Positions 333 through 11,912 are shown, numbered from the stretch's first letter. The stretch: 11,912 nt of DNA from Candidatus Iainarchaeum sp. (GCA_030649735.1 JAUSFL010000031.1:1-11912); one strand, 5' to 3'. Numbers and translations are program-made. Notes: generated from the sequence alone by a model not told the origin.

Positions 333-818
333 ATGGCTCACAAAATAACGCCTTCAAGGCAGAAGTTCAGGGTTGCAAGGCAAGCAGTGCAAGAATTACT
401 GAAGACTTATGGAACTAACTTGAAGGCAGCTTACATTGCAGGAAGCGTTGCCTCAAATATGGCATTGCATGACTCGGATATTGATTTAGGGCTGATTTTT
501 GAAAAAAAGCCAAGCCTTTCAGAAATGGCTGAAATTGAAGCAAGGCTTGAGAAAATAAATCCAGCAATCCAAACGCCTGGCTTTTATGGGGCTAAAGGAT
601 TTGAAACAAGATTGAAAATCAATCGAGGATTTTTTGAGGGAATGCTGCCTGTTTTTGAAAGAGAAAAATACATCACTAATTTTGTAAGGCATTATAGGCT
701 AGCCCCAAACATTCTTTCAATAAGAAAACGATATATTGCAACTAAAGCAAACAGGATTGCAGAACGGGCAGAGTTCAAGCGTTCTGTTGCCGGGCGAAAA
801 CGGTTTTTGCCGCGCTGA
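333..818 (+). CDS. Minimal nucleotidyltransferase (Pol-beta superfamily, MNT-like), about 161 aa
   Basis: AYIAGSVA...DSDIDLGLIF contains the hG[GS]-x(9-13)-DxD signature. ATG at 333 is preferred over the TTG at 321 that overlaps the upstream stop. Both termini are basic. Confidence 0.8.
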   Translation: MAHKITPSRQKFRVARQAVQELLKTYGTNLKAAYIAGSVASNMALHDSDIDLGLIFEKKPSLSEMAEIEARLEKINPAIQTPGFYGAKGFETRLKINRGFFEGMLPVFEREKYITNFVRHYRLAPNILSIRKRYIATKANRIAERAEFKRSVAGRKRFLPR

Positions 819-821
819 GAA

Positions 822-1820
822 TTATTTTCTTCTTTTTGCCTTTTTCTTTGCGGGCCTTCGCGCTGGCCGCTTTTTCTCTGAAAGGATTCTCTTCACTGCA
901 GGCGCGTACTTCTTGAACAATTCCTCAACATTCGCGTTGTTCTTGTGGCCGCCTGCAAGGCTTGAAGCCAATTGAGTCAATTCCATTGGGAACAAGTACT
1001 TTGTTGATTTTCCCCTGCCCAAGCGCTCTAACGCGCGAATGTAATAGTAAGACAATGCCTTGTCTGAAAGCTTTTCAGCGGCTTCCCTGACAGCGTCAAT
1101 TTCCAGGCCGTGCGCCAGCGCCAATTCTCCCCTCGCGAGCTTTTTTTGCTCTGCGGCCTTTTGCTCGCTGAAAGCGTCGCTGATTTGCTTTGGGACAGTC
1201 AAGTTTTGTATTTCAACGGCTTCAATGCTTACGCCCCAAGAATTTGTGATTTGCTCGAGCTTTTCCTTTACTTCCTTGTTGAGTTTTTCAACGCTTGAAA
1301 TCAATTCTGACAATGTCAATGCCCCTGCAGCGTCTCTAATGCTTGAAACGACAAATTGCTCTGCGCCTTTCCTGTAATCGTCAATTTCCAAGACGCTCTT
1401 CATGACAGCGTCATTCTCTTTTTTCACGAACATGTAAATGACGGCGTCAATTGTGACAACTACCTTGTCCACTGTAATGACTTCCTGCGGTTTCACGTCA
1501 AGAGTTTGCGTCCTTAAGTCAACAAGCTTGGCGCTTTCAATGACTGGAATAATGAAAGTCCATCCCGGGCCTCCGACTCTCGAGGCTCTTCCGAACCTGA
1601 AAACAACAGCGCGCTCGTACTCTTTTAAGGTTAGCAAAAAATCATAGCGTGAAATCAGGATAATCACGAACAATGCGAAAAACCCGACCAGAATGTAAAT
1701 TTGGACTATTTCGCGAAAAATGAAAATCGCCGCGGCTGAAAGAAGCAGTATCAGGATAATGAGGACAAAAATCAGCTCTTTAAGCTTGTAGCTTTCCACT
1801 TTTCCGAGCCTTTTTGACAA
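822..1820 (-). CDS. SPFH / band-7 (stomatin/prohibitin/HflK-C family) membrane protein, about 332 aa
   Basis: Two N-terminal hydrophobic segments are followed by EYERAVVFRFGR...GPGWTFIIPVIE...VDLRTQTLDVKPQEVITVDKVVVTIDAVIY...WGVSIEAVEIQ and an Ala/Glu-rich coiled coil, which are classic stomatin motifs. Start re-assigned to TTG at 1820 because an SD-like GGGTG (1830-1826) lies 5 nt upstream; GTG at 1799 is an alternative. Confidence 0.93.
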   Translation of the reverse strand: MSKRLGKVESYKLKELIFVLIILILLLSAAAIFIFREIVQIYILVGFFALFVIILISRYDFLLTLKEYERAVVFRFGRASRVGGPGWTFIIPVIESAKLVDLRTQTLDVKPQEVITVDKVVVTIDAVIYMFVKKENDAVMKSVLEIDDYRKGAEQFVVSSIRDAAGALTLSELISSVEKLNKEVKEKLEQITNSWGVSIEAVEIQNLTVPKQISDAFSEQKAAEQKKLARGELALAHGLEIDAVREAAEKLSDKALSYYYIRALERLGRGKSTKYLFPMELTQLASSLAGGHKNNANVEELFKKYAPAVKRILSEKKRPARRPAKKKAKRRK

Positions 1821-1885
1821 AAAAACACCCTTAATTCCAGCGTAATTAATTAAATACCAAAGCTGCAATAATTAACTACTTGACA

Positions 1886-1893
1886 TATATAAA
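1886..1893. promoter_or_regulatory. Candidate archaeal TATA box in the divergent SPFH/DUF373 intergenic region
   Basis: Reads TATATAAA on + and TTTATATA on -. The minus-strand reading matches the archaeal TTTAWATA consensus. It lies in a ~90-nt AT-rich spacer between divergent genes. Confidence 0.45.
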
Positions 1894-1911
1894 TGTGATT
1901 GGGTTTTAAAA

Positions 1912-3141
1912 ATGGCTGACAAGACAAAAAGCGTCCTGGTTGTTGCAGTGGACCGCGATGACGATTTTGGAAGAAAGGCCAAAATCAGCGGCCCAATCTT
2001 GGGGAGAAAGGCAAACTTGAATGCCGCAGCAAAGCTTGCCTTGGAAGACCCTGAAGATTCGGACAGCAACTGCACTTTCGCCGCAGTCAAGAAATTCCAG
2101 GAGGCAAAAAAGCTTTACGCCAATGTTGAAGTTGTCACTTTGACTGGCGTTGGAAAATTCGGGCTTGAAAGCGACAAGAGGATTAACGAGCAGTTGGATA
2201 ATGTTTTGGAAAAATTTCCCGCAGACGCTTTCATTCTTGTGACTGACGGCGCTGAAGACGACCAAGTCATTCCAATATTGCAGTCCCGCGCGCCAATAAT
2301 CAGCAAGGAAACAGTGATTGTAAAGCAGGCGAAAGAAATCGAAAGCACTTACTATGCAATAAAGGAAGCATTGAAAGACCCTTTTTTGCAAAAAGTGGTT
2401 TTTGGAATTCCTGGAATTTTGCTTTTGACAATAATGATTCTGCCGACAATTGGAACCCAGCTGGTGCTTGGAGGATTTGGGGTTTTCATGCTAATTTACG
2501 GTTTTGGAATTTTTGACTGGGTTGCAGGAATTGTCCGGACTATTACAAAAAGCATTTCGACACAGCGCTCGAGCTTTCCATTCTACATTGCGACAGTGTT
2601 TGTTTTCGGCTTTGGAATAATAAGCTCTTACACGAGCTTTTACGCAAATCCCGCAATTGATGTCATTTCCGCAGGGATTGAGGCAGTGGTGCAATTGGTG
2701 TTTTTCACTTTCATTGCCTCGGAGCTTTTCATTCTTGGAAAAACAATTGACTTGATTCATTTCAAGCGTGCTTACAGGATAAGGAATTACTTCCTTTCAG
2801 GGATTGCAATAGTGCTCATTTGGTACATTTTGGATTCTGGAAGGAATGTGATTGTCCAAAAGACAGACTTGTACTCTTTCCTGATTGCAATAGCCATCAG
2901 CTTTGCCGCCTTTGCATTAAGCTTTAAGGTTTCTGAAGCATTTGATGTCAGGAAAAAAATCACAAAGCTCTTGATTGGCCTGCCAGTCTACAGCAAGAAG
3001 GGCGAATGGGTCGGAAAAGTCGAGGACATTTCCAAAGACAAGCAAAGCATTGAATACTCCTTAATCAAGGGCAAGGAAAAGGCAAGGGCCAAAAGAACAG
3101 AATTCATTCTCAAGGAAGGCAGGATACTGCTTTCGAACTGA
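1912..3141 (+). CDS. DUF373 family archaeal membrane protein with C-terminal PRC-barrel-like extension (409 aa)
   Basis: VLVVAVDRDDDFGRKA...PILGRKANLNAAAKLALEDPEDSDSN...ILVTDGAEDDQVIPILQSR...VIVKQAKEIESTYY is the DUF373 signature, followed by about 6 hydrophobic segments. The tail LIGLPVYSKKGEWVGKVEDI matches the PRC-barrel consensus. Confidence 0.92.
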   Translation: MADKTKSVLVVAVDRDDDFGRKAKISGPILGRKANLNAAAKLALEDPEDSDSNCTFAAVKKFQEAKKLYANVEVVTLTGVGKFGLESDKRINEQLDNVLEKFPADAFILVTDGAEDDQVIPILQSRAPIISKETVIVKQAKEIESTYYAIKEALKDPFLQKVVFGIPGILLLTIMILPTIGTQLVLGGFGVFMLIYGFGIFDWVAGIVRTITKSISTQRSSFPFYIATVFVFGFGIISSYTSFYANPAIDVISAGIEAVVQLVFFTFIASELFILGKTIDLIHFKRAYRIRNYFLSGIAIVLIWYILDSGRNVIVQKTDLYSFLIAIAISFAAFALSFKVSEAFDVRKKITKLLIGLPVYSKKGEWVGKVEDISKDKQSIEYSLIKGKEKARAKRTEFILKEGRILLSN

Positions 3142-3190
3142 CGCCGTTCAAACTTTAAAACAAAAAAAAGTCTGGCAAGAACTGATTTTA

Positions 3191-3206
3191 AGAAAACAAT
3201 TATATT
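3191..3206 (+). promoter_or_regulatory. Candidate BRE/TATA element for a leaderless transcript of the 3228 gene
   Basis: AGAAAACAA followed by TTATAT (3200-3205), which begins 28 nt before the ATG. No SD motif precedes the ATG. Confidence 0.45.
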
Positions 3207-3227
3207 GTACAGTATTTTTTTAATAGT

Positions 3228-5684
3228 ATGAAGCGCCCGCTTATCACTCTTGTTTTTTTCCTGCTGGCTTTAAGCACAGCCAGTTCTGCATTCACAATAA
3301 GCCAGGGCAATATTTTTGACAATTCAGGGCAAAAATGGAAAGGAAATGGCGTGTTTTACCTTACTAATTATGCGGACAATTCGGACAACATTCAAGAAAA
3401 CTTATCAATTATTACCGGGGCATTCAATGCTTGCGCAATTGATCCTTTAACCCCGAGAGAAACAATTCCAAACGACAAAAGAATTTGCTTATGGAATTAC
3501 TATGATAATGAATTAAACAAGAGAAAACAACTGGTAAGCGCAGAATTTGATAACATAAAAAATTCAGGATTTAATTCAATAACTTTAACCGTGGGATTTA
3601 TTTATAATACTCAAAAGATTATGCCTTCAAGGCCAGGCCAGCCGGAGATTGCAAACAGAGATTCTCTGCCACCTTATAGTTGTGACGGAATAAAGGATGC
3701 ATTGCGCCTTGCAAAAAGCAAGGGACTTACAGCAACTTCTTTAATGTTCAAGCCAGTGACAACTTTTAACGAAGGCCAATGCGATCCAATGCTTTATGTC
3801 GGGGAAATAAACCCAAGTTGGAAAATGTTCGGTGCCGGAAGCATTGGCTGCCTTGAATCACTAAGGCTTTGCGATTTTGCGCACAGCGATGTAAGCGATG
3901 CTTTCATTTCTTACGACATTTCATGGGAGCCGACTTTTTTTTGGGTTCCAGAATGGCATCCCACCATGCTTGAAGTTTACGACTGGCATTACAAGCATTG
4001 GGCGACTGGAGAATATATTGAGTATTCAATTGGTTGGGACACTCGCCCGGCTTTTCCCGCAACTCTTGCAGCATACAATCAAATCCCTTACAAGGGAGCA
4101 TATTATGCGTTCCTGAAAAAAGAATGGGAAAACTGGCTCATAACAAATTATGGTTCAGTGGATGCTGCAACTGTTGCTTTCGGACAGTTTGTGGGAAACC
4201 CTCAAGGCTTGCTTAATTTAATGGACAATCCATCACAGCCCCCAAACCAGGGAATTATTTGCGCTGAAAGCCCAAGCGTCTTGGCTTCTGCTGAAAGAAG
4301 ATTCATGAATGATGTTTTGAACGCAAAATACAAGCTTGCTGTTTCGCAAATAAAAAGCATTGATCCAGTCCATGCAGTAAGCACGAGGGCGGCAAGCAGC
4401 ATTGAGCCCAACTGCGCCTATTACATGCCTTACGAGCAAAGGGCATTGGCAAAAAACTTGGACATGATTCCAGAAGAACTTTACCAGTTTGGCCAGTTTT
4501 TCCTGCAAAACAACGGCGATTTCATTCTGCCAGGCTCAACAAGCCCTAATGCTGCATTAAACAGTTCTGAAGCTTTGCTTAAAGCAAAGGCAATAATGGA
4601 TTTCATTTACGGGTTTTCAAGCTTTAATGGAAAAAAGCCAGTTTACGCCCCTGAAGTGGGATGGCAATTGAAAATAAACAATGGCGGCAATGAAGACTCG
4701 CACACAAAATTTTTGAACTTGCTTTACCAAGCAGCAGCGCATTCAAACTTTACCAGCCTGACCTTGTGGGTTTACAGCGATAGTTCAGCGCACTATTTAG
4801 ATGTTGAAGGAGTTGATTTTCCAATCACTTTTAACGAAACTTCAGGGCCCAGGTTACGAAACAAGCCAAGAATTGCGGCAAACTCTCAAACTGCGCAAAA
4901 CTTCCTAACTTCAAACAACAATCCAACCCAAACCGTGACAATCGACTTGGACAAGTACGGGGACAGGCAAAAAGTGTACAGTGAAAAAATCAACGAAATT
5001 TATAACATTTTGAAAGCAAACCCTTCAGCCGTTGTCGGAGTGAAAACAGACTGCACTGACAGGAGCTCTACAGACAGTTTTGGCCTGATAAAATGCGTCG
5101 GCAACGCAGCAAACAATTATGCCTGCCCTTTGAAGTGCTTTAACGCGCAATTCAACAATTTGGAAATCATGAACTCAAACAACCAATGGCAAAAAATAAA
5201 AAGCGGGAATCAAGTTACCGTCAAGGCAAACTCGCCTATCAAGGCAAGGGCTTCTGTCGGAAACTTGACTGAAGGCGTTTGGAAGACAGCGAACGTACGC
5301 CTTGGAAGCATTGAATGGAAGCCTGACGCAATATCATTCAGAAAAAGCATTTCTTCAGATGTTCAAGCATTAGGAGACAATGATTTTGGAGAATTTGAAC
5401 TGCCCTCAATAAGCGCCACAAAAAAAGCATACTTTAGGATGGTTATAGAAAATGTCGCTTGGTTCGGGGAAGAAATACAAGTTACGTTAACGCCCGCTAA
5501 AACTATAACAAATGCCTGCCCTGACGCTAAAAAAGACGGAGTAATAAACATCCTGGACTTGGTGGCAATGGCAAAAGCAATAAACCAAAACGATTTGGCC
5601 TACAACCTCAATGCAGACACATCAACAGACATTGAAGACTTGCGCTTAGTGGCAGACAAGATAGGAATTAATTGCCAAAGTTAA
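3228..5684 (+). CDS. Secreted clan GH-A-like (GH5/GH42-like) glycoside hydrolase with Ig-like domain and C-terminal dockerin-like module (818 aa)
   Basis: Sec signal peptide MKRPLITLVFFLLALSTASSA. TIM-barrel motifs: EFDNIKNSGFNSI; ISYDISWEP (putative acid/base E234); WENWLITNYGSVDAATVAFG (GH42-like WLxxxYG helix); IKSIDPVHAVS; KPVYAPEVG (putative nucleophile E476); LTLW. These are followed by a beta-rich ARASVGNLTEGVWK...VRLG domain and a two-loop dockerin-like tail. Confidence 0.75.
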   Translation: MKRPLITLVFFLLALSTASSAFTISQGNIFDNSGQKWKGNGVFYLTNYADNSDNIQENLSIITGAFNACAIDPLTPRETIPNDKRICLWNYYDNELNKRKQLVSAEFDNIKNSGFNSITLTVGFIYNTQKIMPSRPGQPEIANRDSLPPYSCDGIKDALRLAKSKGLTATSLMFKPVTTFNEGQCDPMLYVGEINPSWKMFGAGSIGCLESLRLCDFAHSDVSDAFISYDISWEPTFFWVPEWHPTMLEVYDWHYKHWATGEYIEYSIGWDTRPAFPATLAAYNQIPYKGAYYAFLKKEWENWLITNYGSVDAATVAFGQFVGNPQGLLNLMDNPSQPPNQGIICAESPSVLASAERRFMNDVLNAKYKLAVSQIKSIDPVHAVSTRAASSIEPNCAYYMPYEQRALAKNLDMIPEELYQFGQFFLQNNGDFILPGSTSPNAALNSSEALLKAKAIMDFIYGFSSFNGKKPVYAPEVGWQLKINNGGNEDSHTKFLNLLYQAAAHSNFTSLTLWVYSDSSAHYLDVEGVDFPITFNETSGPRLRNKPRIAANSQTAQNFLTSNNNPTQTVTIDLDKYGDRQKVYSEKINEIYNILKANPSAVVGVKTDCTDRSSTDSFGLIKCVGNAANNYACPLKCFNAQFNNLEIMNSNNQWQKIKSGNQVTVKANSPIKARASVGNLTEGVWKTANVRLGSIEWKPDAISFRKSISSDVQALGDNDFGEFELPSISATKKAYFRMVIENVAWFGEEIQVTLTPAKTITNACPDAKKDGVINILDLVAMAKAINQNDLAYNLNADTSTDIEDLRLVADKIGINCQS
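5517..5675 (+). repeat. Dockerin-like module, copy 1 (53 codons, Cys to Cys)
   Basis: CPDAKKDGVINILDLVAMAKAINQNDLAYNLNADTSTDIEDLRLVADKIGINC aligns without gaps to 8777-8935 (offset 3260): 29/53 aa and about 104/159 nt identical by hand count, including an exact 17-mer GCAAAAGCAATAAACCA (5571-5587 and 8831-8847). Confidence 0.9.
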
Positions 5685-5693
5685 AAGAAGATT

Positions 5694-7664
5694 TTACGCA
5701 ATCTCCGGCTTTACAATATTTGCCAAGTTTATTTTCAACAGCTTTTTCAAGTCTGCCAAAAGCTTTGTCCTCGCATTGTTTTTTTCAAAAGCGTGCTCTA
5801 AAACTTCACTGAGGTTTTTTGCGGGAATGATTGTTATTCTTTCCAAGTCTGCCTTTGGCAGTACAACATCATCCATGTTTGAAGCCGGAATAATGACTTC
5901 CTTGAAGCCGGCCTTTATTGCAGCCTGCACTTTTGCAGTAATTCCTCCAACAGGCATTACCTCTCCTCGAACGCTTAAAGAGCCAGTCATTGCAAGGTCT
6001 TGCTTGACTGGAATTTGCTCCAATGCAGAAATTACTGCAGTCGCAACGCTAACAGAAGCTGAATCTCCTTCGACTCCGCTGTAAGACTGCAAAAACTGGA
6101 TGTGCAGGTCGTAATGGGAAACATCCTTTCCTGAAAGCTTTTTTATGATTGCTGAAACATTCTGCACTGCCTCTTTCGCAATTTCACCAAGCTTTCCAGT
6201 TGCAACGAGCTTTCCTTCGCTCTTGCTCATTGCGGGAGCGACTTCAGCCTCAATGGGCAAAATCATTCCGGCATCTCCGTCTCCAGAGACTGCAAGGCCG
6301 TTGACTCTTCCAATCATTGCACCCTTGCTCAAATAGACCTGGTAGTCTTTTCTTTCATCAAGCATTTTTGAAACCATTTGCTGCTCTAAAGTCCTTGCAG
6401 AATACTTTGCGAGGAAAACATCGTCTTCAGTAACCAGCAAGTGGCCTTTCTCTATTGCAATGTCTCCGGCTCCCCTAATCAAGCCGCCCAAATCACGGAG
6501 CTTTAAAGTAAGCTTGTTTTTCCTGCCAGCGCGCTGGCGTGCTTCAAAAATAATCTTTTCAACTGCTTTCGCGTCAAAGTGCGGGATTTTTCCATCCTTC
6601 TTGACTTCTTGAGCAATGAATTGGATTATTTTATTGCGGTTTTCTTCATTGTCTGGCATGTCGACATTCAAGTAAACTTCATAGCCGTAGCCGCGAATCC
6701 TGGAGCGCAGTGCAGGATGCACTTTTTCCAAATCCTCATAATTCCCTGCTGCAGCCAATACAAAATCGCAAGGCACTGGGTCAGTGCGGGTCATTGCCCC
6801 AGAGCTCATTTCGCTCTGGCCAGTAATTGAAAACTTTCTTTCCTGCATTGCAGTCAGCAAATCCTGCTGTGATTTTTGAGTGAGAGTTGCAATTTCATCA
6901 ATGAACAAAACTCCGCCTGAAGCCCTGTGGATCATTCCAGGCTCTACTCTAATGTGCGCTGGAGTTCCAAGGCCGCCACTTTGGAGCGGGTCATGCCTCA
7001 CGTCCCCGAGAAGTGCTCCAGCCCTTGCTCCTGTTCCTTCAAAGAATGGCGCGGATTTTTTTCCTGCATTGTCAACCAGCAATTTTGGAACCTGGTTGGA
7101 TGATTTGGTTTTCATTTGCCCGCCTAATGCAATTCCAATGAACAAGAAGCCGCCTAAAATCAGTGTTGCGGCATAAACCACGTCCGGAATCCACGCGAGC
7201 TTCCAAATGACGTATGAAAGAATGAACCATCCAATGCTGAGCAAGAAAGTCAAAAGCCTTGCATTGTCTTCCTGCGCTCGCGCGTCAGTGCGGAGCTTGT
7301 GGATTATTTTCTTTCCCTCGCCGGCCTTTACAATCCGGACTTTAGGAGTGTTAGGGTCCTGGCGGTTTGGGTATATTAGTATGTCATGCAATTGCTGCAC
7401 TGGCATTAGCTCTGACATTGCCTGCGCCAAAAGAGATTTTCCAGTTCCTGGCTTTCCAATAAGCAAAATATTCCTTTTTTGCGCCGAAGCCTTTTTTGCG
7501 ATTTCAACTGCCTGCTCTTGCCCGACAATTTGCTCAATAAGTTTTTCCGGAACTTGAACTTCAGCAGTGCTTTTGATTTTCAGGCCTAAGGCGCCGTCAA
7601 TTCCTTTCTCTTCATTTTTTGGAACAACGGCATTGGCGCTTTTCGCTTTTTTAGAATCAGGCAT
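5694..7664 (-). CDS. lonB: Archaeal membrane-anchored ATP-dependent protease LonB (656 aa)
   Basis: Walker A GKPGTGKS, two transmembrane helices inserted in the ATPase domain, [18 protein letters not shown], Walker [19 protein letters not shown], and a catalytic Ser-Lys dyad (VEGDSAS ... PVGGITAK). No intein seen. Confidence 0.97.
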
Positions 7665-7753
7665 GATTCAAATTGCATTAAAAAAGGTTAAAAATGCTTT
7701 GATTTTGAAAGTAAATAGTACAATGATAAAAAAAACTGTTTTCTGGTGGAATA
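7665..7753. promoter_or_regulatory. AT-rich divergent promoter region between lonB and rnz, with SD-like GGTGGA (7745-7750) before rnz
   Basis: 89-nt spacer between head-to-head genes. It contains several weak TATA-like words, and the functional one cannot be picked by eye. Confidence 0.4.
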
Positions 7754-8668
7754 ATGCAGGGAATTAAAATTGTTTTTTTGGGAACTAGCGGGGCAACGCC
7801 TTCAAAAGAGCGCAATCTTTCAAGCACTTGCATTAACTTTAACGGACAGAATTTTCTTTTCGACTGCGCTGAAGGCACTCAAAGGCAAATAATGCAAAGC
7901 GGGTTGAGCTTCATGAAAGTCGACTTTATTTTCATTAGCCATTTGCACGGAGACCACATTTTGGGAATTCCAGGGCTTTTGGCTACAATGACAATGCAGG
8001 AAAGGCAGAAAGAATTGCTCATTGCAGGACCTAGAGGAATTGCCGCAAAAGTAAAAAGCGCAATTTGGCTTTCAGGCTTTTGCCCGACTTTTCCATTAAA
8101 AGTTGTTGAAATTTCTGGAAAGAAAGTATTGTTGAAGGAAAGCAAATTCAAAATCACTGCATTTCCATTAAGGCATGACGCGCCTTGCTTTGGCTTTGTG
8201 TTTGAGGAATTAAAGCCTGAAGGAAAATTCCTGCGCGAAAAGGCAGTAAAGCTTGGAATTCCAGAAGGTCCTTTGTGGAGAGACTTGCAACTAGGCAAAA
8301 GCGTGAAATTCGAAAAAAAGACTTTCAAGCCGGCGCAGGTTTTGGACTATGCGAAAGGGAAAAAAGGAAAAAAAATTGCAGTCATAATGGACACTTTGCC
8401 AAAATATTCGCTTGCTGAAATCAACGAGTGCGACTTGATAGTGCATGAAGCCTGCTTTTCCTCAAAGTTTGAGGACCGCGCCAAGCAAACCAGGCATTCT
8501 ACAGCAGCGCAGGCCGCAGGAATTGCTAAAAAAACAAAAAGCAAGCGATTGGTCATAACGCACATCAGCACGCGCCACCAGAAAGACATTGAAGAATTGG
8601 AAAAAGAGGCAAAAGAAATTTTTCCAAACTCTGAAGTTGCGAAAGACTTGGAAGAAATTGTGATTTGA
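7754..8668 (+). CDS. rnz: Ribonuclease Z (tRNA 3' endonuclease, short form), 304 aa
   Basis: FLGTSGATPSKERN, LFDCAEGTQRQ, metallo-beta-lactamase motif SHLHGDH, GP-type flexible arm (LGIPEGPLWRDLQ), DT, HEACF, HST and THISTRH motifs. Confidence 0.97.
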   Translation: MQGIKIVFLGTSGATPSKERNLSSTCINFNGQNFLFDCAEGTQRQIMQSGLSFMKVDFIFISHLHGDHILGIPGLLATMTMQERQKELLIAGPRGIAAKVKSAIWLSGFCPTFPLKVVEISGKKVLLKESKFKITAFPLRHDAPCFGFVFEELKPEGKFLREKAVKLGIPEGPLWRDLQLGKSVKFEKKTFKPAQVLDYAKGKKGKKIAVIMDTLPKYSLAEINECDLIVHEACFSSKFEDRAKQTRHSTAAQAAGIAKKTKSKRLVITHISTRHQKDIEELEKEAKEIFPNSEVAKDLEEIVI

Positions 8669-8670
8669 GA

Positions 8671-8685
8671 ATAAACAGTTAAATA
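8671..8685 (+). promoter_or_regulatory. Candidate BRE/TATA element for a leaderless transcript of the 8708 gene
   Basis: ATAAACAG followed by TTAAATA (8679-8685), which begins 29 nt before the ATG. No SD motif. Confidence 0.45.
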
Positions 8686-8707
8686 ATACTTTTAATTTGA
8701 TTAATTA

Positions 8708-10486
8708 ATGAAAAAGATTTTTGCCCTGGCGCTAATTCTTTTATTTCCTGCCTTTGCTTTTGCATTTTCTGCAAATTGCCCGGACACTAAAAAAGACGTA
8801 AAAATAGACGTTTTGGACTTGGTCAAAATTGCAAAAGCAATAAACCAGCAAAGCGTTTTTTTTGACTTGACAGATGATGAAAGAATTGACATTCAAGACC
8901 TGCAGGCAACAGCAAACAAAATTGGAACAAACTGCCAGGAAAACCAAATTGTGGTAAAAGCAAACTCTAACTACAGGAATTCAAGCGGTTATGCAATAAT
9001 GCCGCAAACTCTGCCTTCAGGAGCAATTGTTGTTGAAAAAAACCTTTTTTCACAAAAACTTACAGCGAAAGACATTCAGAATGCAAGCCTTTTCGTGTTT
9101 GGAGACATTCACATAAAACAAATAAACACAGCCACAGCAAGCAAAGCCAGAACATTGGATGCTTCAGAAATCAACCTTTTAAGAAGTGCTTTAGAGAATG
9201 GAATGAACTTAATCTTTACAGCAGGCAGTGGAGTGACTGAAAACTACAATGACTCAAGCTTTGGAACAAGGGACATATTGAACAGGCTCACTGACAAAAT
9301 ACAATACACTCAGGCAGTGAACTTTGTTGCGGACGGTTTTGAAATCCCAAACTATTCCCAGTTTCCATTCATGCAAAATGTAGTTTTCGACTTTAATGGA
9401 ATGTATAATGCTCCCGGAACAATGAATGTCTCAAGCCCAGCAAGTTGCGTTATGAATTATGCTGGAAAATGCATGGCTGCGTTTTTGCCAAAGACAGGCA
9501 ACAGCGGCTTTATTTTCGTTGACGGCGGTTCAGGCAATGCGAATCCAGAATTATACTTTGATAATCTGATACGAATGTCTTACAATCAGCAATTACGGGA
9601 GAGTTCGCAAAAAATTTACGCGGCAGTTGATAATGCTCCGCGATGGAGCAATGACTTTTCAAACAGAATTGACATTAAAGGCCTTGCTGATGATTTGGAA
9701 AGCCTGAAATTCAATAATTACCAAATGATAATAACTCACAATGAAAAAGACTGGGAAGACTTGAAGCTGTTGGTTGAAGAATTGGACCAGAGAAATTCAA
9801 GAGTTACGGTAACTGCCAATTTGCCCGGGTTTAATCAAAACCCAAAGAGGGCAAGCGGCATTTGGCGCTGGGCAGAGCCCTACAAAGACGATTACAAAAC
9901 ATGGTTTGTTGAAATTGCAACTTATTCATTGCAGCACCCCAGATTGACAGGAATAGTCATTGATGATTTTACCGCGAAAAGAAATCAATGGCCTGCAAGC
10001 AGTCCAGATCGTAAAGGGTTTACTCCAGCAATAATTCAAGACATGGTTTCTGCAGGAAAGGCAATAAACCCCAACCTGAAATTCTATCCAGTAGCTTATT
10101 GCAACCCGCATTTTGACGTTTTAATGAATTCTTTCATCAGAAACCAGCCTTCGGCAGAATACATTGACGGCTTGACTCTTTACGCGTCAATGGATTTGCT
10201 AGACAATCCAGCCACAGTGAAAAATTGCTTTTTGGGTAATGAAAAAGAGCTTTCCAGAATGGGAAAAAACGTCATCTATGGAATTTACATTGTAGGAAAC
10301 AGCGCATACCAAATGAGCATTAACACTGCAAAAGCAAATATTGACCGCGGCTTTAGCTATCCTGGCCTTGGAGCCACATTCTACACATATCCTCCAACCG
10401 CAAGCTATCCTGGAATTTGGCCTCCAGTTGAAGTAAGCCAAATTCCTGAGTTAAGGAATTATTTGAGCGGAAAACTGGCCAATTGA
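8708..10486 (+). CDS. Secreted protein: N-terminal dockerin-like module, GATase-like/DUF4350-like alpha-beta domain, putative glycoside-hydrolase TIM barrel (592 aa)
   Basis: Signal peptide MKKIFALALILLFPAFAFA and dockerin-like module (aa 24-76). The middle domain has LTAKDIQNASLFVFG...LDASEINLLRSALENGMNLIF, a class-I GATase-like-fold pattern. The C-terminal domain has LTGIVIDDF (D419-D420), GKAINPNLKFYP and YIDGL, typical of (beta/alpha)8 glycosidase-like folds. The CDS is certain; the function is tentative. Confidence 0.6.
   Translation: MKKIFALALILLFPAFAFAFSANCPDTKKDVKIDVLDLVKIAKAINQQSVFFDLTDDERIDIQDLQATANKIGTNCQENQIVVKANSNYRNSSGYAIMPQTLPSGAIVVEKNLFSQKLTAKDIQNASLFVFGDIHIKQINTATASKARTLDASEINLLRSALENGMNLIFTAGSGVTENYNDSSFGTRDILNRLTDKIQYTQAVNFVADGFEIPNYSQFPFMQNVVFDFNGMYNAPGTMNVSSPASCVMNYAGKCMAAFLPKTGNSGFIFVDGGSGNANPELYFDNLIRMSYNQQLRESSQKIYAAVDNAPRWSNDFSNRIDIKGLADDLESLKFNNYQMIITHNEKDWEDLKLLVEELDQRNSRVTVTANLPGFNQNPKRASGIWRWAEPYKDDYKTWFVEIATYSLQHPRLTGIVIDDFTAKRNQWPASSPDRKGFTPAIIQDMVSAGKAINPNLKFYPVAYCNPHFDVLMNSFIRNQPSAEYIDGLTLYASMDLLDNPATVKNCFLGNEKELSRMGKNVIYGIYIVGNSAYQMSINTAKANIDRGFSYPGLGATFYTYPPTASYPGIWPPVEVSQIPELRNYLSGKLAN
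8777..8935 (+). repeat. Dockerin-like module, copy 2 (53 codons, Cys to Cys)
   Basis: CPDTKKDVKIDVLDLVKIAKAINQQSVFFDLTDDERIDIQDLQATANKIGTNC is a direct, gap-free paralogue of 5517-5675. Confidence 0.9.
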
Positions 10487-10494
10487 AAAAGACC

Positions 10495-10526
10495 TTCAAG
10501 AAATAATTATTTGAATTTTTCTTGAA
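10495..10526. repeat. Intergenic inverted repeat (9-bp arms) with nested 12-bp palindrome; possible terminator or operator
   Basis: TTCAAGAAA (10495-10503) pairs with TTTCTTGAA (10518-10526). AAATAATTATTT (10501-10512) is a perfect palindrome. It starts 9 nt after the stop of the 8708 gene. Confidence 0.5.
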
Positions 10527-10534
10527 AAAGCGGG

Positions 10535-10546
10535 GAAAGTTATTAA
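10535..10546 (+). promoter_or_regulatory. Candidate BRE/TATA element for the 10570 gene
   Basis: GAAAG followed by TTATTAA (10540-10546), which begins 30 nt before the ATG at 10570. Confidence 0.4.
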
Positions 10547-10569
10547 TTCTAGAAATTTTTATTTCATGC

Positions 10570-11912
10570 ATGAACTCTTTTGCAAAAAGCCTGGCTTTGA
10601 CAGGAATTTTATTTCTTGCATTTCCCGCACTGGCTAGCGCTGCTTGCGGAAGCCTTGCCAGCGGCCAATACTACCTTGTGAAAGCGCCTGCTTTAACAAG
10701 CCCTGACGCAAACTACACAGTCTTTTTGAAAAATGATGCATATGTCCACGAACAATTCATCTACTCAATCCAAGGAATTGCAAACAGGCAGGGGCCTTGC
10801 TTTTACGTTGAAATGAACAACGCATGGCCTGAAGGAAAAGATTACACTTTCACTTGGGAAAAAGTCCTTGCAAGCGATCCTGACATAAGGGCAGTTTCTG
10901 GAACAAACTTCCAGCCAATTACAGTTCCAAAGCAAGATATTTTCATTGCAGCTAATGATTTGGGAGTTGCGAAATACTTTTTCTGGAATGTAAGGAGCGA
11001 AGTCTCAACGCATAATTGGGACTGGATTGACATCAGGAAAAGCCCCGCAAGAATGGCGGCCTCATCTTATGCAGGCGCAACAAGCGCCATAGCAATTCCT
11101 TACAGGAAAGGCGCGTCAAACGCTCTTGCAATTTCAGTCCAAAATCATTCCACAATGCAGGATTTCCAAACAATCGAGGAATTGAAAACATACCTTGACG
11201 GCCTTGGCTTCTCCCAAGTGCAGGATGAATGGAATGCCTTTGAAAATGAAATCGCAAACTATTCCACCGCACATAATGAACTTGAACTAAGAGACCATGA
11301 GTACAGGTGGCTTGTCCAAAACTGGCTGAACAATCCCTCATTTGGCTTGAGCAAGAATTATTTTTGCGCATTAGGAATCGGCGCCGATGACCAATGCGTT
11401 GAAAAAAAGGCTTTTGCATTTTTCCTATCATATTGGCCAAACCAAGCCTGCAATTCAGAAAGCACGCCGTATGCAAGCCAGTGCAGGATAGCCTATGCGC
11501 TTTCAAACTCAACAAACTTTTATGACAAAGAAAAAGACCATGCAATGGCTGAGTTCATTCTCTCGCAATCAACAGGCAATGCGACTGTTCTTGGCTGGAG
11601 CAATTCAGAGCCTTGGTTTGCTTTCACTAACGCAAAATTCGGCCACGTGACTTCGCAAACTGGCGGACGCAATTTCAGCTTTATCTCAAAAATCCCGGTA
11701 AATTCTCAATACTTGAGAGCTCCCCAACCAAGGACAGAATTCCAGTATGACGAAAGCAAGTATTATTCGGGAATAATGATTAGCGATTCGTCATATGTTA
11801 ATGGCGCAGGGTCAATGTTTTATGACTCTTTCACTGTCAATGCTTCGGGAGTAGGGAGCTTTACAACGCAGACAAAACTCAATTGGGGAATTGACTCCGC
11901 GTTTTATGACCG
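10570..11912 (+). CDS. Secreted GxGYxYP-family-like putative glycoside hydrolase, 3'-truncated (>447 aa); absent from the supplied ORF track
   Basis: Hand translation from ATG 10570 shows no stop before the window end: MNSFAKSLALTGILFLAFPALASA (signal peptide)...FIYSIQGIANRQGPCFYV...EYRWLVQNW...ATVLGWSNSEPW...KFGH...RNFSFISK...DESKYYSGIMISDSS...KLNWGID. The SxQGxxNR, YxW, VxGW..E, NxSxxS and KxY...SD motifs occur in the order known for GxGYxYP proteins. The eponymous motif would lie beyond the window. Confidence 0.72.
   Translation, partial: MNSFAKSLALTGILFLAFPALASAACGSLASGQYYLVKAPALTSPDANYTVFLKNDAYVHEQFIYSIQGIANRQGPCFYVEMNNAWPEGKDYTFTWEKVLASDPDIRAVSGTNFQPITVPKQDIFIAANDLGVAKYFFWNVRSEVSTHNWDWIDIRKSPARMAASSYAGATSAIAIPYRKGASNALAISVQNHSTMQDFQTIEELKTYLDGLGFSQVQDEWNAFENEIANYSTAHNELELRDHEYRWLVQNWLNNPSFGLSKNYFCALGIGADDQCVEKKAFAFFLSYWPNQACNSESTPYASQCRIAYALSNSTNFYDKEKDHAMAEFILSQSTGNATVLGWSNSEPWFAFTNAKFGHVTSQTGGRNFSFISKIPVNSQYLRAPQPRTEFQYDESKYYSGIMISDSSYVNGAGSMFYDSFTVNASGVGSFTTQTKLNWGIDSAFYD

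Follow-up and report, generated by a model that had tools for sequence, protein, structure and literature searches.

The stretch of DNA considered here (the window) comprises 11,912 bases from Candidatus Iainarchaeum sp. (GCA_030649735.1, JAUSFL010000031.1:1-11912) and probably holds the enzyme genes, one half of a locus through which a small-genome archaeon displays proteins on its cell surface by means of cohesin-dockerin pairs. It is an entire contig (C15) of a 1.28-Mb assembly in 51 contigs, estimated to be 92.7% complete and 2.27% contaminated, and its host is taken to be a DPANN-type archaeon of the Iainarchaeia, labels that were taken over rather than derived in this analysis. Three co-directional open reading frames (ORFs) on the plus strand, at 3228-5684, 8708-10486 and 10522-11912, start with signal-peptide-like N-termini, as an earlier first-pass annotation of the window had claimed. 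The two complete ones have one module in common, the closest solved-structure matches of which are dockerins, and the third, when followed past position 11912 as that annotation had proposed, also ends in this module and is directly succeeded by two cohesin genes.

The shared module and the adjacent cohesin genes

The two complete proteins, protein 1 (818 aa) and protein 2 (592 aa), had been described as sharing one module and nothing else, and pairwise comparison agrees: residues 764-817 of protein 1 and 24-77 of protein 2 match with 30 of 54 identities (56%, E 2e-15), and nothing else in common was found beyond this match (next best E 0.41). The copy is C-terminal in protein 1 (5517..5675, plus strand, Cys764 to Cys816), where two loop-helix repeats lie between the invariant cysteines, and N-terminal in protein 2, directly after the signal peptide (8777..8935, plus strand, Cys24 to Cys76); both belong to the subtype A defined below. 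An alignment of 18 module copies (A1), the basis of the invariance counts and of a profile search of the PDB, displays two tandem segments of Ca loop plus helix (F-hand), each of about 22 residues, with C4, D10, D17, D44, L45, G53 and C56 invariant in all 18 copies. The six best matches of the A1 profile are the dockerins 2b59_B, 2jnk_A, 5lxv_B, 3kcp_A, 4wi0_B and 5g5d_B (E 6e-5 to 2e-4), and dockerins make up 11 of the 22 chains listed at E<=1. The AlphaFold2 (AF2) models place two helices in the module of either protein (775-786 and 802-809 in protein 1, 35-46 and 62-69 in protein 2), with a predicted local distance difference test (pLDDT) score of 83-95 in both. The dockerin identity proposed in the first-pass annotation is thus supported by the profile matches and by the two helices in both models.

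Scanned alone against Pfam, the two window copies match only Dockerin_1 and EF-hand models. Across the whole genome, 8 of 26 six-frame rows, in seven ORFs, exceed the gathering threshold of Dockerin_1 (PF00404, 22.9 bits), four of them outright and four only together with their neighbours in frame; a paralogous copy on contig C2 passes with 26.9 bits in the six-frame search and 23.3 bits by hmmscan. Dockerin Ca ligands are canonically D/N at loop positions 1, 3, 5, 9 and 12. Loop 2 of protein 1 follows the canonical pattern (N-x-N-x-D-x-x-x-D-x-x-D), and loop 1 reads D-x-K-x-D-G-x-I-N-x-x-D, position 3 being Lys in subtype A and Thr in most of subtype B. The Cys-Cys bracket probably forms a disulfide clasp that joins the two ends of the module.

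Gene 3 (10522..11912, plus strand) is open at its 3' end at the contig end, and its likely start is the ATG at 10570, because a paralogue on contig C16 aligns from residue 17. At its 3' end, C15 shares exactly 141 bases with the start of contig C19 and of contig C10, each read as its reverse complement; the far ends of both overlap the start of C13 by exactly 141 bases, so that the path runs from C15 in plus orientation through C19 or C10 in minus orientation to C13 in plus orientation. The reading frame of gene 3 is continuous across the join, the ORF tails agree over 46 residues, and the joined gene is collinear with the intact C16 paralogue, the C15 part corresponding to residues 1-448 and the C19 part to residues 403-905 at 72-75% identity. 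Sequencing runs were searched as Logan contigs, and no RNA run is among the listed holders. An 11.8-kb contig of one run (X1, possibly the source sample) spans bases 1-258 of C19, extends past base 1 and therefore bridges the stop codon of gene 3; no listed piece spans all of C19, and a second run (X2) has no cover at bases 799-1699. The continuous frame, the collinearity and the bridging contig together lead to a gene 3 product of about 919-935 aa with a GxGYxYP_C domain and a C-terminal subtype-A module. C10 and C19, of 1699 bases each, carry alternative 3' halves of gene 3 that are 88% identical, between identical 141-nt flanks, and form a population-level bubble; a third variant of this stretch, about 95% identical, is present in an independent groundwater run.

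On C13, a small cohesin anchor gene (79-660) begins about 75 nt after the gene 3 stop and encodes 193 aa with a signal peptide, a cohesin, a transmembrane (TM) helix and a basic tail; 4 nt further on follows the gene of a large, Cys-rich cohesin protein of 1038 aa (665-3781) with an N-terminal cohesin and a C-terminal TM segment. The cohesin search suggested in the first-pass annotation was productive: the genome holds four matches to Cohesin (PF00963, gathering threshold 24.1 bits), scoring 34.9, 34.0, 31.6 and 24.6 bits in the six-frame search and 34.4, 28.0, 31.3 and 21.0 bits by hmmscan of the ORFs, and a hidden Markov model (HMM) built from these four and searched in the genome retrieved no further confident domain or protein. 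All four proteins possess a signal peptide, a single N-terminal cohesin and at least one C-terminal TM segment with a basic tail, and they also carry fn3, LamG, Ig-like and Cys-rich regions; no S-layer homology (SLH), sortase-signal or carbohydrate-binding module (CBM) family is among their Pfam matches. Pairwise scores separate three types of cohesin, namely small-anchor, 'large' and C24/C30. The C24 and C30 genes lie directly downstream of the subtype-B dockerin genes C24_13662 and C30_60899, and the C13 pair follows the subtype-A gene 3, so that every one of the three cohesin loci comes after a dockerin gene. Sub-threshold matches to the NCBIfam 'acidic double-disulfide repeat' (cut-off 41) occur in the large C13 cohesin protein (38.7 bits), C30_146878 (33.9 bits) and the C19 ORF (22.7 bits); regions of this kind are common to the cohesin protein and tagged proteins.

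Tagged proteins in the genome and distribution of the system

An HMM built from the two window copies, as the first-pass annotation had recommended, was iterated on the six-frame ORF set of the genome until convergence and retrieved 24 ORFs at 23 loci, with the module always terminal (6 N-terminal just after the signal peptide, 18 C-terminal and none internal) and with diverse cargo. These 23 loci amount to 17,603 residues, or 4.1% of the 1.28-Mb assembly. Two subtypes can be distinguished, subtype A with 11 ORFs and the motif 'CPDAKKDG.IN.LDLV..KAIN...', and subtype B with 13 ORFs and the motif 'C.DLT.D.KVD.FDLVFVALR.GN..GDPADV.GNDGVNI.DLQ...'. Subtype A corresponds to 10 loci when C10 and C19 are counted once, and catalytic families of carbohydrate-active enzymes (CAZymes) defined by Pfam are found in six of the 10: glycoside hydrolase (GH) families GH10 (162 bits), GH88 (290), GH18 (63), a SASA esterase (72), Hepar_II_III (38 and 31 bits for the heparinase II/III N and C domains) and GxGYxYP_C (27.8) all exceed their cut-offs. 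The remaining subtype-A cargo, namely protein 1, protein 2, C30_146878 and the C2 fragment, matched no Pfam family apart from dockerin. Subtype-B cargo includes GH39 (68 bits), likewise over its cut-off, and right-handed Beta_helix domains of the pectate-lyase-like kind (40-42 bits), as well as Laminin_G_3, fn3, Ig-like, cadherin-like, Big_9 and He_PIG domains in proteins of up to 1528 residues. The combination of a heparinase-like lyase with GH88, a SASA esterase, GH10, GH18 and GH-A-like barrels points to mixed, partly acidic polysaccharides as putative substrates, for example biofilm or cell-surface glycans.

Several module-like sequences stand apart from this set. A secreted protein of 1343 aa on C47 (30663-34694, minus strand) ends in a third, different Cys-containing dockerin-like tail, which passes Dockerin_1 with 23.7 bits and is missed by the A/B module profile, and a half-module (profile positions 30-56) in a 26-codon frame with a TAA stop on C18 (8732-8812, minus strand) looks like a decayed dockerin copy. 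The homologue search for protein 1 also returned a metagenomic protein of 917 aa (P0066) with eight tandem dockerin-like repeats of the 'CPDLNGDG.V.ILD' kind, an unusual multi-dockerin architecture.

Protein 1 consists of a signal peptide, a barrel (about 19-560), a beta-sandwich (about 565-757) and the C-terminal subtype-A dockerin. It has no NCBIfam match; a whole-protein sequence search of the PDB returned only a match in the dockerin region (E 0.23), and a word-indexed homologue search returned a single relative at 71% identity. HMMER against 1.84 billion representatives gave 211 matches at E<=1e-3, 94 at <=1e-10 and 6 at <=1e-30, and resolves the protein into a barrel with few relatives, a widespread domain at about 560-757 and the dockerin; the relatives P0012 and P0025 pass Pfam Glyco_hydro_42. 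The AF2 model, from a 51-row alignment, has a pLDDT of 84.3 and a predicted template modelling score (pTM) of 0.85, and the top listed Foldseek matches are all glycoside hydrolases (GH42, GH5_18, GH164 and GH157; E 2e-8 to 3e-6, 9-12% identity). GH42, GH5, GH164 and GH157 are presumed here to belong to clan GH-A, in which the acid/base residue is expected after strand 4 and the nucleophile after strand 7. Two residues at strand ends, E234 (Glu in 33 of 36 rows of alignment A3) and E476 (37 of 40 rows), close to the modelled strands 226-233 and 472-477, are candidates for the catalytic acid/base and nucleophile as expected for this clan. The model thus supports a clan GH-A-like (beta/alpha)8 barrel, similar to clan GH-A hydrolases in the fold and in the conserved Glu at two strand ends but differing from them in the low identity to solved members and the lack of a Pfam match, and with the tools applied here it is not assignable to a CAZy family. 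The beta-sandwich (window 4920-5498), which corresponds to no Pfam family, is C-terminal in many long proteins, with dozens of matches at E 1e-10 to 1e-38, and may be an undescribed carbohydrate-binding module.

Protein 2 carries its subtype-A dockerin behind the signal peptide, followed by orphan cargo. No homologue of this cargo was found by word-indexed search or by six-frame search of 195 other genomes of the order, nor did the protein give an NCBIfam match or a PDB match in a whole-protein sequence search. The model is of low confidence (pLDDT 56.6), and within it residues 265-582 resemble barrels of the GH5, GH1 and GH10 types (Foldseek E 2.5e-6; VIA Z 10-12.7, with a root-mean-square deviation above 5 Å over 220-270 residues); atlas leads to DUF4434, DUF4015 and GHL10 have template modelling scores of 0.36-0.44, in the same direction but below the atlas bar, and all atlas leads lie under 0.9. 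The cargo is therefore tentatively regarded as a glycosidase-type TIM barrel. For gene 3, the GxGYxYP_C match lies on the C19 continuation and is marginal (27.8 bits against a cut-off of 27.0); the window part alone yields only GxGYxYP_N_3rd at E 0.08, and neither a literal G.GY.YP motif nor an NCBIfam match over the cut-off was found in the protein. Among the glycosidase-like labels that the first-pass annotation had given to the three proteins, the GH-A-like assignment of protein 1 accordingly stands on a confident model, the TIM barrel of protein 2 is tentative and the GxGYxYP assignment of protein 3 is marginal.

The C16 paralogue of gene 3 (35264-40066, L055) is a protein of 1600 aa with 72% identity over the N-terminal 448 residues and a GxGYxYP_C score of 21.6 bits, under the cut-off. 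It contains no dockerin; a long extension rich in Cys and a TM anchor at the C-terminus take its place, so that one enzyme occurs both with its own anchor and with a dockerin tag. This natural control is what would be expected if the dockerin offered another way of attaching the enzyme to the cell surface. Proteins 1-3 themselves show no later TM segment in a simple hydropathy scan and no lipobox-like Cys context, in line with the absence of a C-terminal TM helix, PGF-CTERM or clear lipobox reported for the two complete proteins in the first-pass annotation; lipoprotein or PGF-CTERM anchoring of these enzymes was rejected because neither a lipobox-like context nor a C-terminal hydrophobic stretch is present.

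In a comparison of 196 genomes of the order (E<=1e-5), the module was detected in 10 and the cohesin in nine, with both in six, the module only in four, the cohesin only in three and neither in 183; a sample of 215 genomes of the phylum contained no additional carrier. Copy number reaches 24-25 in this genome and at most four in any other of the order, and genomes of the same genus and family (81-91% complete) contain no module, nor a cohesin where this was searched; the module set seems to have expanded in one lineage only. The succession of dockerin gene, small cohesin anchor gene and gene for a larger cohesin protein recurs in two further genomes of this order, G008 and G030, the modules of G008 being subtype-A-like and Cys-bracketed, and the cassette is also shared by G019, a related archaeal genome of the same order that is 99% complete in one contig. 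Full-length GH88 occurs only in this genome among the 196, and GH10 in three, the other two also being module carriers. A pattern search with the subtype-A alignment A6 gave 11 matches, none of which was confirmed; the pattern would miss variants such as those of G008.

Proposed display mechanism and competing explanations

In the proposed mechanism, the three proteins would be exported by the Sec pathway, each with a dockerin of about 53 residues that comprises two Ca-loop/helix repeats within a Cys-Cys bracket. The dockerin would plug into a protein that has one cohesin and is fixed in the membrane through its C-terminal helix, the nearest candidates being the products of the two genes after gene 3. 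Enzymes for glycan degradation would in this way stay on the surface of the cell and not be lost to the groundwater. Two channels may operate, one pairing subtype A (mostly CAZymes) with the C13 cohesin pair beside it, and the other pairing subtype B (beta-helix, GH39 and lectin-/Ig-rich giants) with the C24/C30-type cohesins. We infer binding and specificity mainly from adjacency and co-occurrence, and the Ca dependence, the disulfide, the enzyme activities and the substrates are likewise putative. Co-folding with a candidate scaffold, a check proposed in the first-pass annotation, provided weak support: the small C13 cohesin (residues 21-152) with the protein 1 dockerin reached 0.55, against 0.21 for the best of three controls, with runs agreeing in at least 88% of contacts and a partner pLDDT of at least 58. 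Of 80 solved complexes, 58 pass the mark applied, as do 2 of 110 mismatched pairs; only seven of the 80 but both passing mismatches do so at <=0.60, and these calibration counts hold only roughly, since custom alignments were used in the co-folding. The earlier idea of a portable docking tag is supported with regard to diverse cargo and single-cohesin membrane anchors; the system is not an organised complex on a multi-cohesin scaffoldin.

A number of observations weigh against surface display through cohesin-dockerin pairs. The window copies of the module stay below the Dockerin_1 cut-off, at 15.7 bits (E 0.018) and 14.2 bits (E 0.05); the other 11 of the 22 PDB chains listed for the A1 profile are of EF-hand type (centrin, caltractin, calmodulin and a Ca exchanger), so that part of the apparent dockerin signal is a generic Ca-loop signal, and with position 3 being neither Asp nor Asn, canonical Ca coordination in loop 1 is uncertain. 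Both fold-search lists are filled by barrels, and the predicted dockerin fold draws on profile matches and the secondary structure of the models. On the cohesin side, the C30 domain falls under the cut-off by hmmscan (21.0 bits), the assignment of cohesins to dockerin subtypes is drawn from adjacency alone, and the passing co-fold may reflect likeness to solved cohesin-dockerin complexes. The contig joins depend on assembly overlaps and on a single bridging run contig, which may come from the source sample. The fold of protein 2 derives from a poor model, and enzyme activities are putative throughout. The association of module and cohesin (Fisher p 2e-7, or 3e-6 without this genome) is overstated, as relatives are not independent, and four genomes (61-92% complete) have the module with no detected cohesin, and three have the cohesin with no module.

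Some of these points bear on the more doubtful possibility, somewhat less probable than the adhesion reading discussed below, that the module binds Ca and, braced by a disulfide, serves as a tag for stabilisation or sorting without binding the cohesins of the genome, its partner, if any, being an S-layer, glycan or partner-cell protein. Sub-threshold window copies, a non-canonical loop 1, EF-hand-type proteins among the profile matches, the four genomes with the module and no detected cohesin and the weak co-fold support would all fit such a tag; it would leave unexplained that all three cohesin loci of this genome directly follow a dockerin gene, as also happens in G008 and G030, and that module and cohesin occur together in 6 of 196 genomes, with the closest relatives lacking both. 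A function mainly in adhesion of the archaeon to biofilm or to host or partner cells, with the 'enzymes' acting as glycan-binding or wall-opening adhesins and the subtype-B giants as the main players, is unlikely but deserves more weight, given the abundance of Laminin_G_3, cadherin-like, Big_9, He_PIG and fn3 domains in subtype-B cargo and the presence of fn3, LamG, Ig-like and Cys-rich regions on the cohesin proteins themselves. Yet the catalytic CAZyme families in 6 of 10 subtype-A loci and the retention of both putative catalytic glutamates in protein 1 argue for degradation, and a lyase together with GH88 forms a coherent degradative pair, as known from established enzymology; adhesion and digestion can also coexist.

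An assembly or binning artefact, in which bacterial cellulosome-type contigs were mixed into an archaeal bin, is very improbable. Many module copies do lie at contig ends, the C10/C19 bubble indicates a strain mixture and the estimated contamination is not zero; nevertheless, archaeal LonB and DUF373 genes lie between or beside the tagged genes, module-tagged genes are present also on contigs of 149 and 160 kb, GC content is even (0.38-0.44), and the same cassette recurs in related archaeal genomes, including the single-contig G019. After the cohesin genes, C13 continues with archaeal/eukaryote-type genes for Cdc6/Orc1 (Cdc6_lid), an RFC-like protein, PheRS beta and a YGR210-type GTPase; it is archaeal chromosome and not a stray bacterial contig.

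Display on the cell surface through cohesin-dockerin pairs remains the preferred reading, and it can be extended to a more ambitious one, which is possible but has somewhat less than an even chance: that this is the first archaeal (DPANN-type) cellulosome-like enzyme display, with orthogonal channels (A with the C13 pair, B with C24/C30), disulfide-clasped dockerins and single-cohesin TM anchors, in which lyases, GH88, GH10, GH18, esterases and novel GH-A barrels would harvest biofilm or host-surface polysaccharides, at an investment of about 4% of the genome. Host association and attack on host glycans, as raised in the first-pass annotation, are speculation.

Relation to known systems and genes around the locus

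DPANN archaea are usually pictured as metabolically poor dependants; if the display system is real, a DPANN archaeon would be active in breaking down complex groundwater carbon, and a concrete, testable mechanism would be at hand by which a small cell keeps its exoenzymes. For cohesin-dockerin biology, it would provide TM anchors of minimal design with one cohesin each, two specificities that look separate within a single small genome, and possibly a covalent clasp, all of them small and potentially robust modules for protein engineering. The data support a system in which a small-genome archaeon uses cohesin-dockerin pairs for the surface display of carbohydrate-active enzymes; the families themselves are already known. 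A literature search on dockerins in DPANN, Diapherotrites or Iainarchaeota returned no such system by title or abstract start, and survey supplements may list domains. The relevant dockerin passage in PMC9123182 concerns a bacterium of the Candidate Phyla Radiation (CPR), and in a 2024 survey of cellulosome-displaying bacteria (PMC11557425), archaea appear only in the reference list.

Bacterial cellulosomes of Clostridia and Ruminococcus resemble the present system in the terminal dockerin on secreted glycan-active enzymes, in cohesin proteins that tether them to the cell, in the occurrence of several dockerin subtypes with presumably separate cohesin partners and in cargo beyond cellulases. 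Their reported relatives include the amylosomes of Ruminococcus bromii (PMC4611034), the 'mucinolysomes' of Limousia (PMC12997984) and the minimal system of Cellulosilyticum lentocellum (PMC13487519). In contrast to bacterial cellulosomes, the system described here resides in an archaeal host with a 1.28-Mb genome, anchors through C-terminal TM segments rather than SLH domains or sortase, and uses Cys-bracketed dockerins that are N-terminal in 6 of 24 cases; neither a multi-cohesin scaffoldin nor a CBM-bearing scaffoldin was seen in it. With one cohesin per protein in all four cohesin proteins, the locus falls outside the strict definition of a cellulosome, which calls for a multi-cohesin scaffoldin that bears a CBM and is anchored by SLH domains or sortase, and most likely works like the anchoring tier of one.

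Cohesins and dockerins of the same families are known from archaeal non-cellulosomal settings such as Archaeoglobus fulgidus and anaerobic methanotrophic archaea (ANME). According to the relevant parts of PMC9012536, archaeal cohesin-dockerin pairs bind (the A. fulgidus modules being credited there to Bayer 1999, Haimovitz 2008 and Peer 2009), an earlier survey found no large scaffoldins in archaea, and common ANME cargo consists of ATP-binding cassette (ABC)-transporter substrate-binding proteins and S-layer proteins. The present system differs in that subtype A here tags mainly glycoside hydrolases together with a lyase and an esterase, and in the presence of 23 tagged loci in a very small genome. 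The Cys-Cys bracket recalls the dockerin 'intramolecular clasp' of Slutzki et al. 2013 (PMC3821032), which likewise brings residues just before Ca loop 1 into contact with the C-terminal end of the dockerin and is described as a stabilising influence both on the fold and on the binding of cohesin. The clasps described there are non-covalent (Trp-Pro stacking, Glu-Arg and Tyr-Lys), with no occurrence of 'cysteine' or 'disulfide' in PMC3821032, whereas an invariant Cys at both clasp positions in 18 of 18 copies suggests a covalent clasp here, presumably through a disulfide.

The remaining genes of the window are of other kinds. Its 5' end holds the 3' end of an unnamed gene, followed by genes for a Pol-beta-type nucleotidyltransferase (321-818), an SPFH/Band 7 protein and a DUF373 membrane protein, all ahead of the gene for protein 1 (3228..5684). 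Between the latter and the gene for protein 2 (8708..10486) lie the gene for an archaeal LonB (5694-7664, minus strand) with a LonB_AAA-LID match, which together with DUF373 serves as an archaeal marker within the window, and that for a tRNase Z-like metallo-beta-lactamase (7754-8668). Because these housekeeping genes at 5694-8668 intervene, gene 1 does not share one operon with genes 2 and 3 and the cohesin genes. The nucleotidyltransferase gene has a paralogue on C13 (17465-17944; 47% identity, E 1e-44), and the two flank a stretch of about 30 kb that contains the enzyme and cohesin locus.

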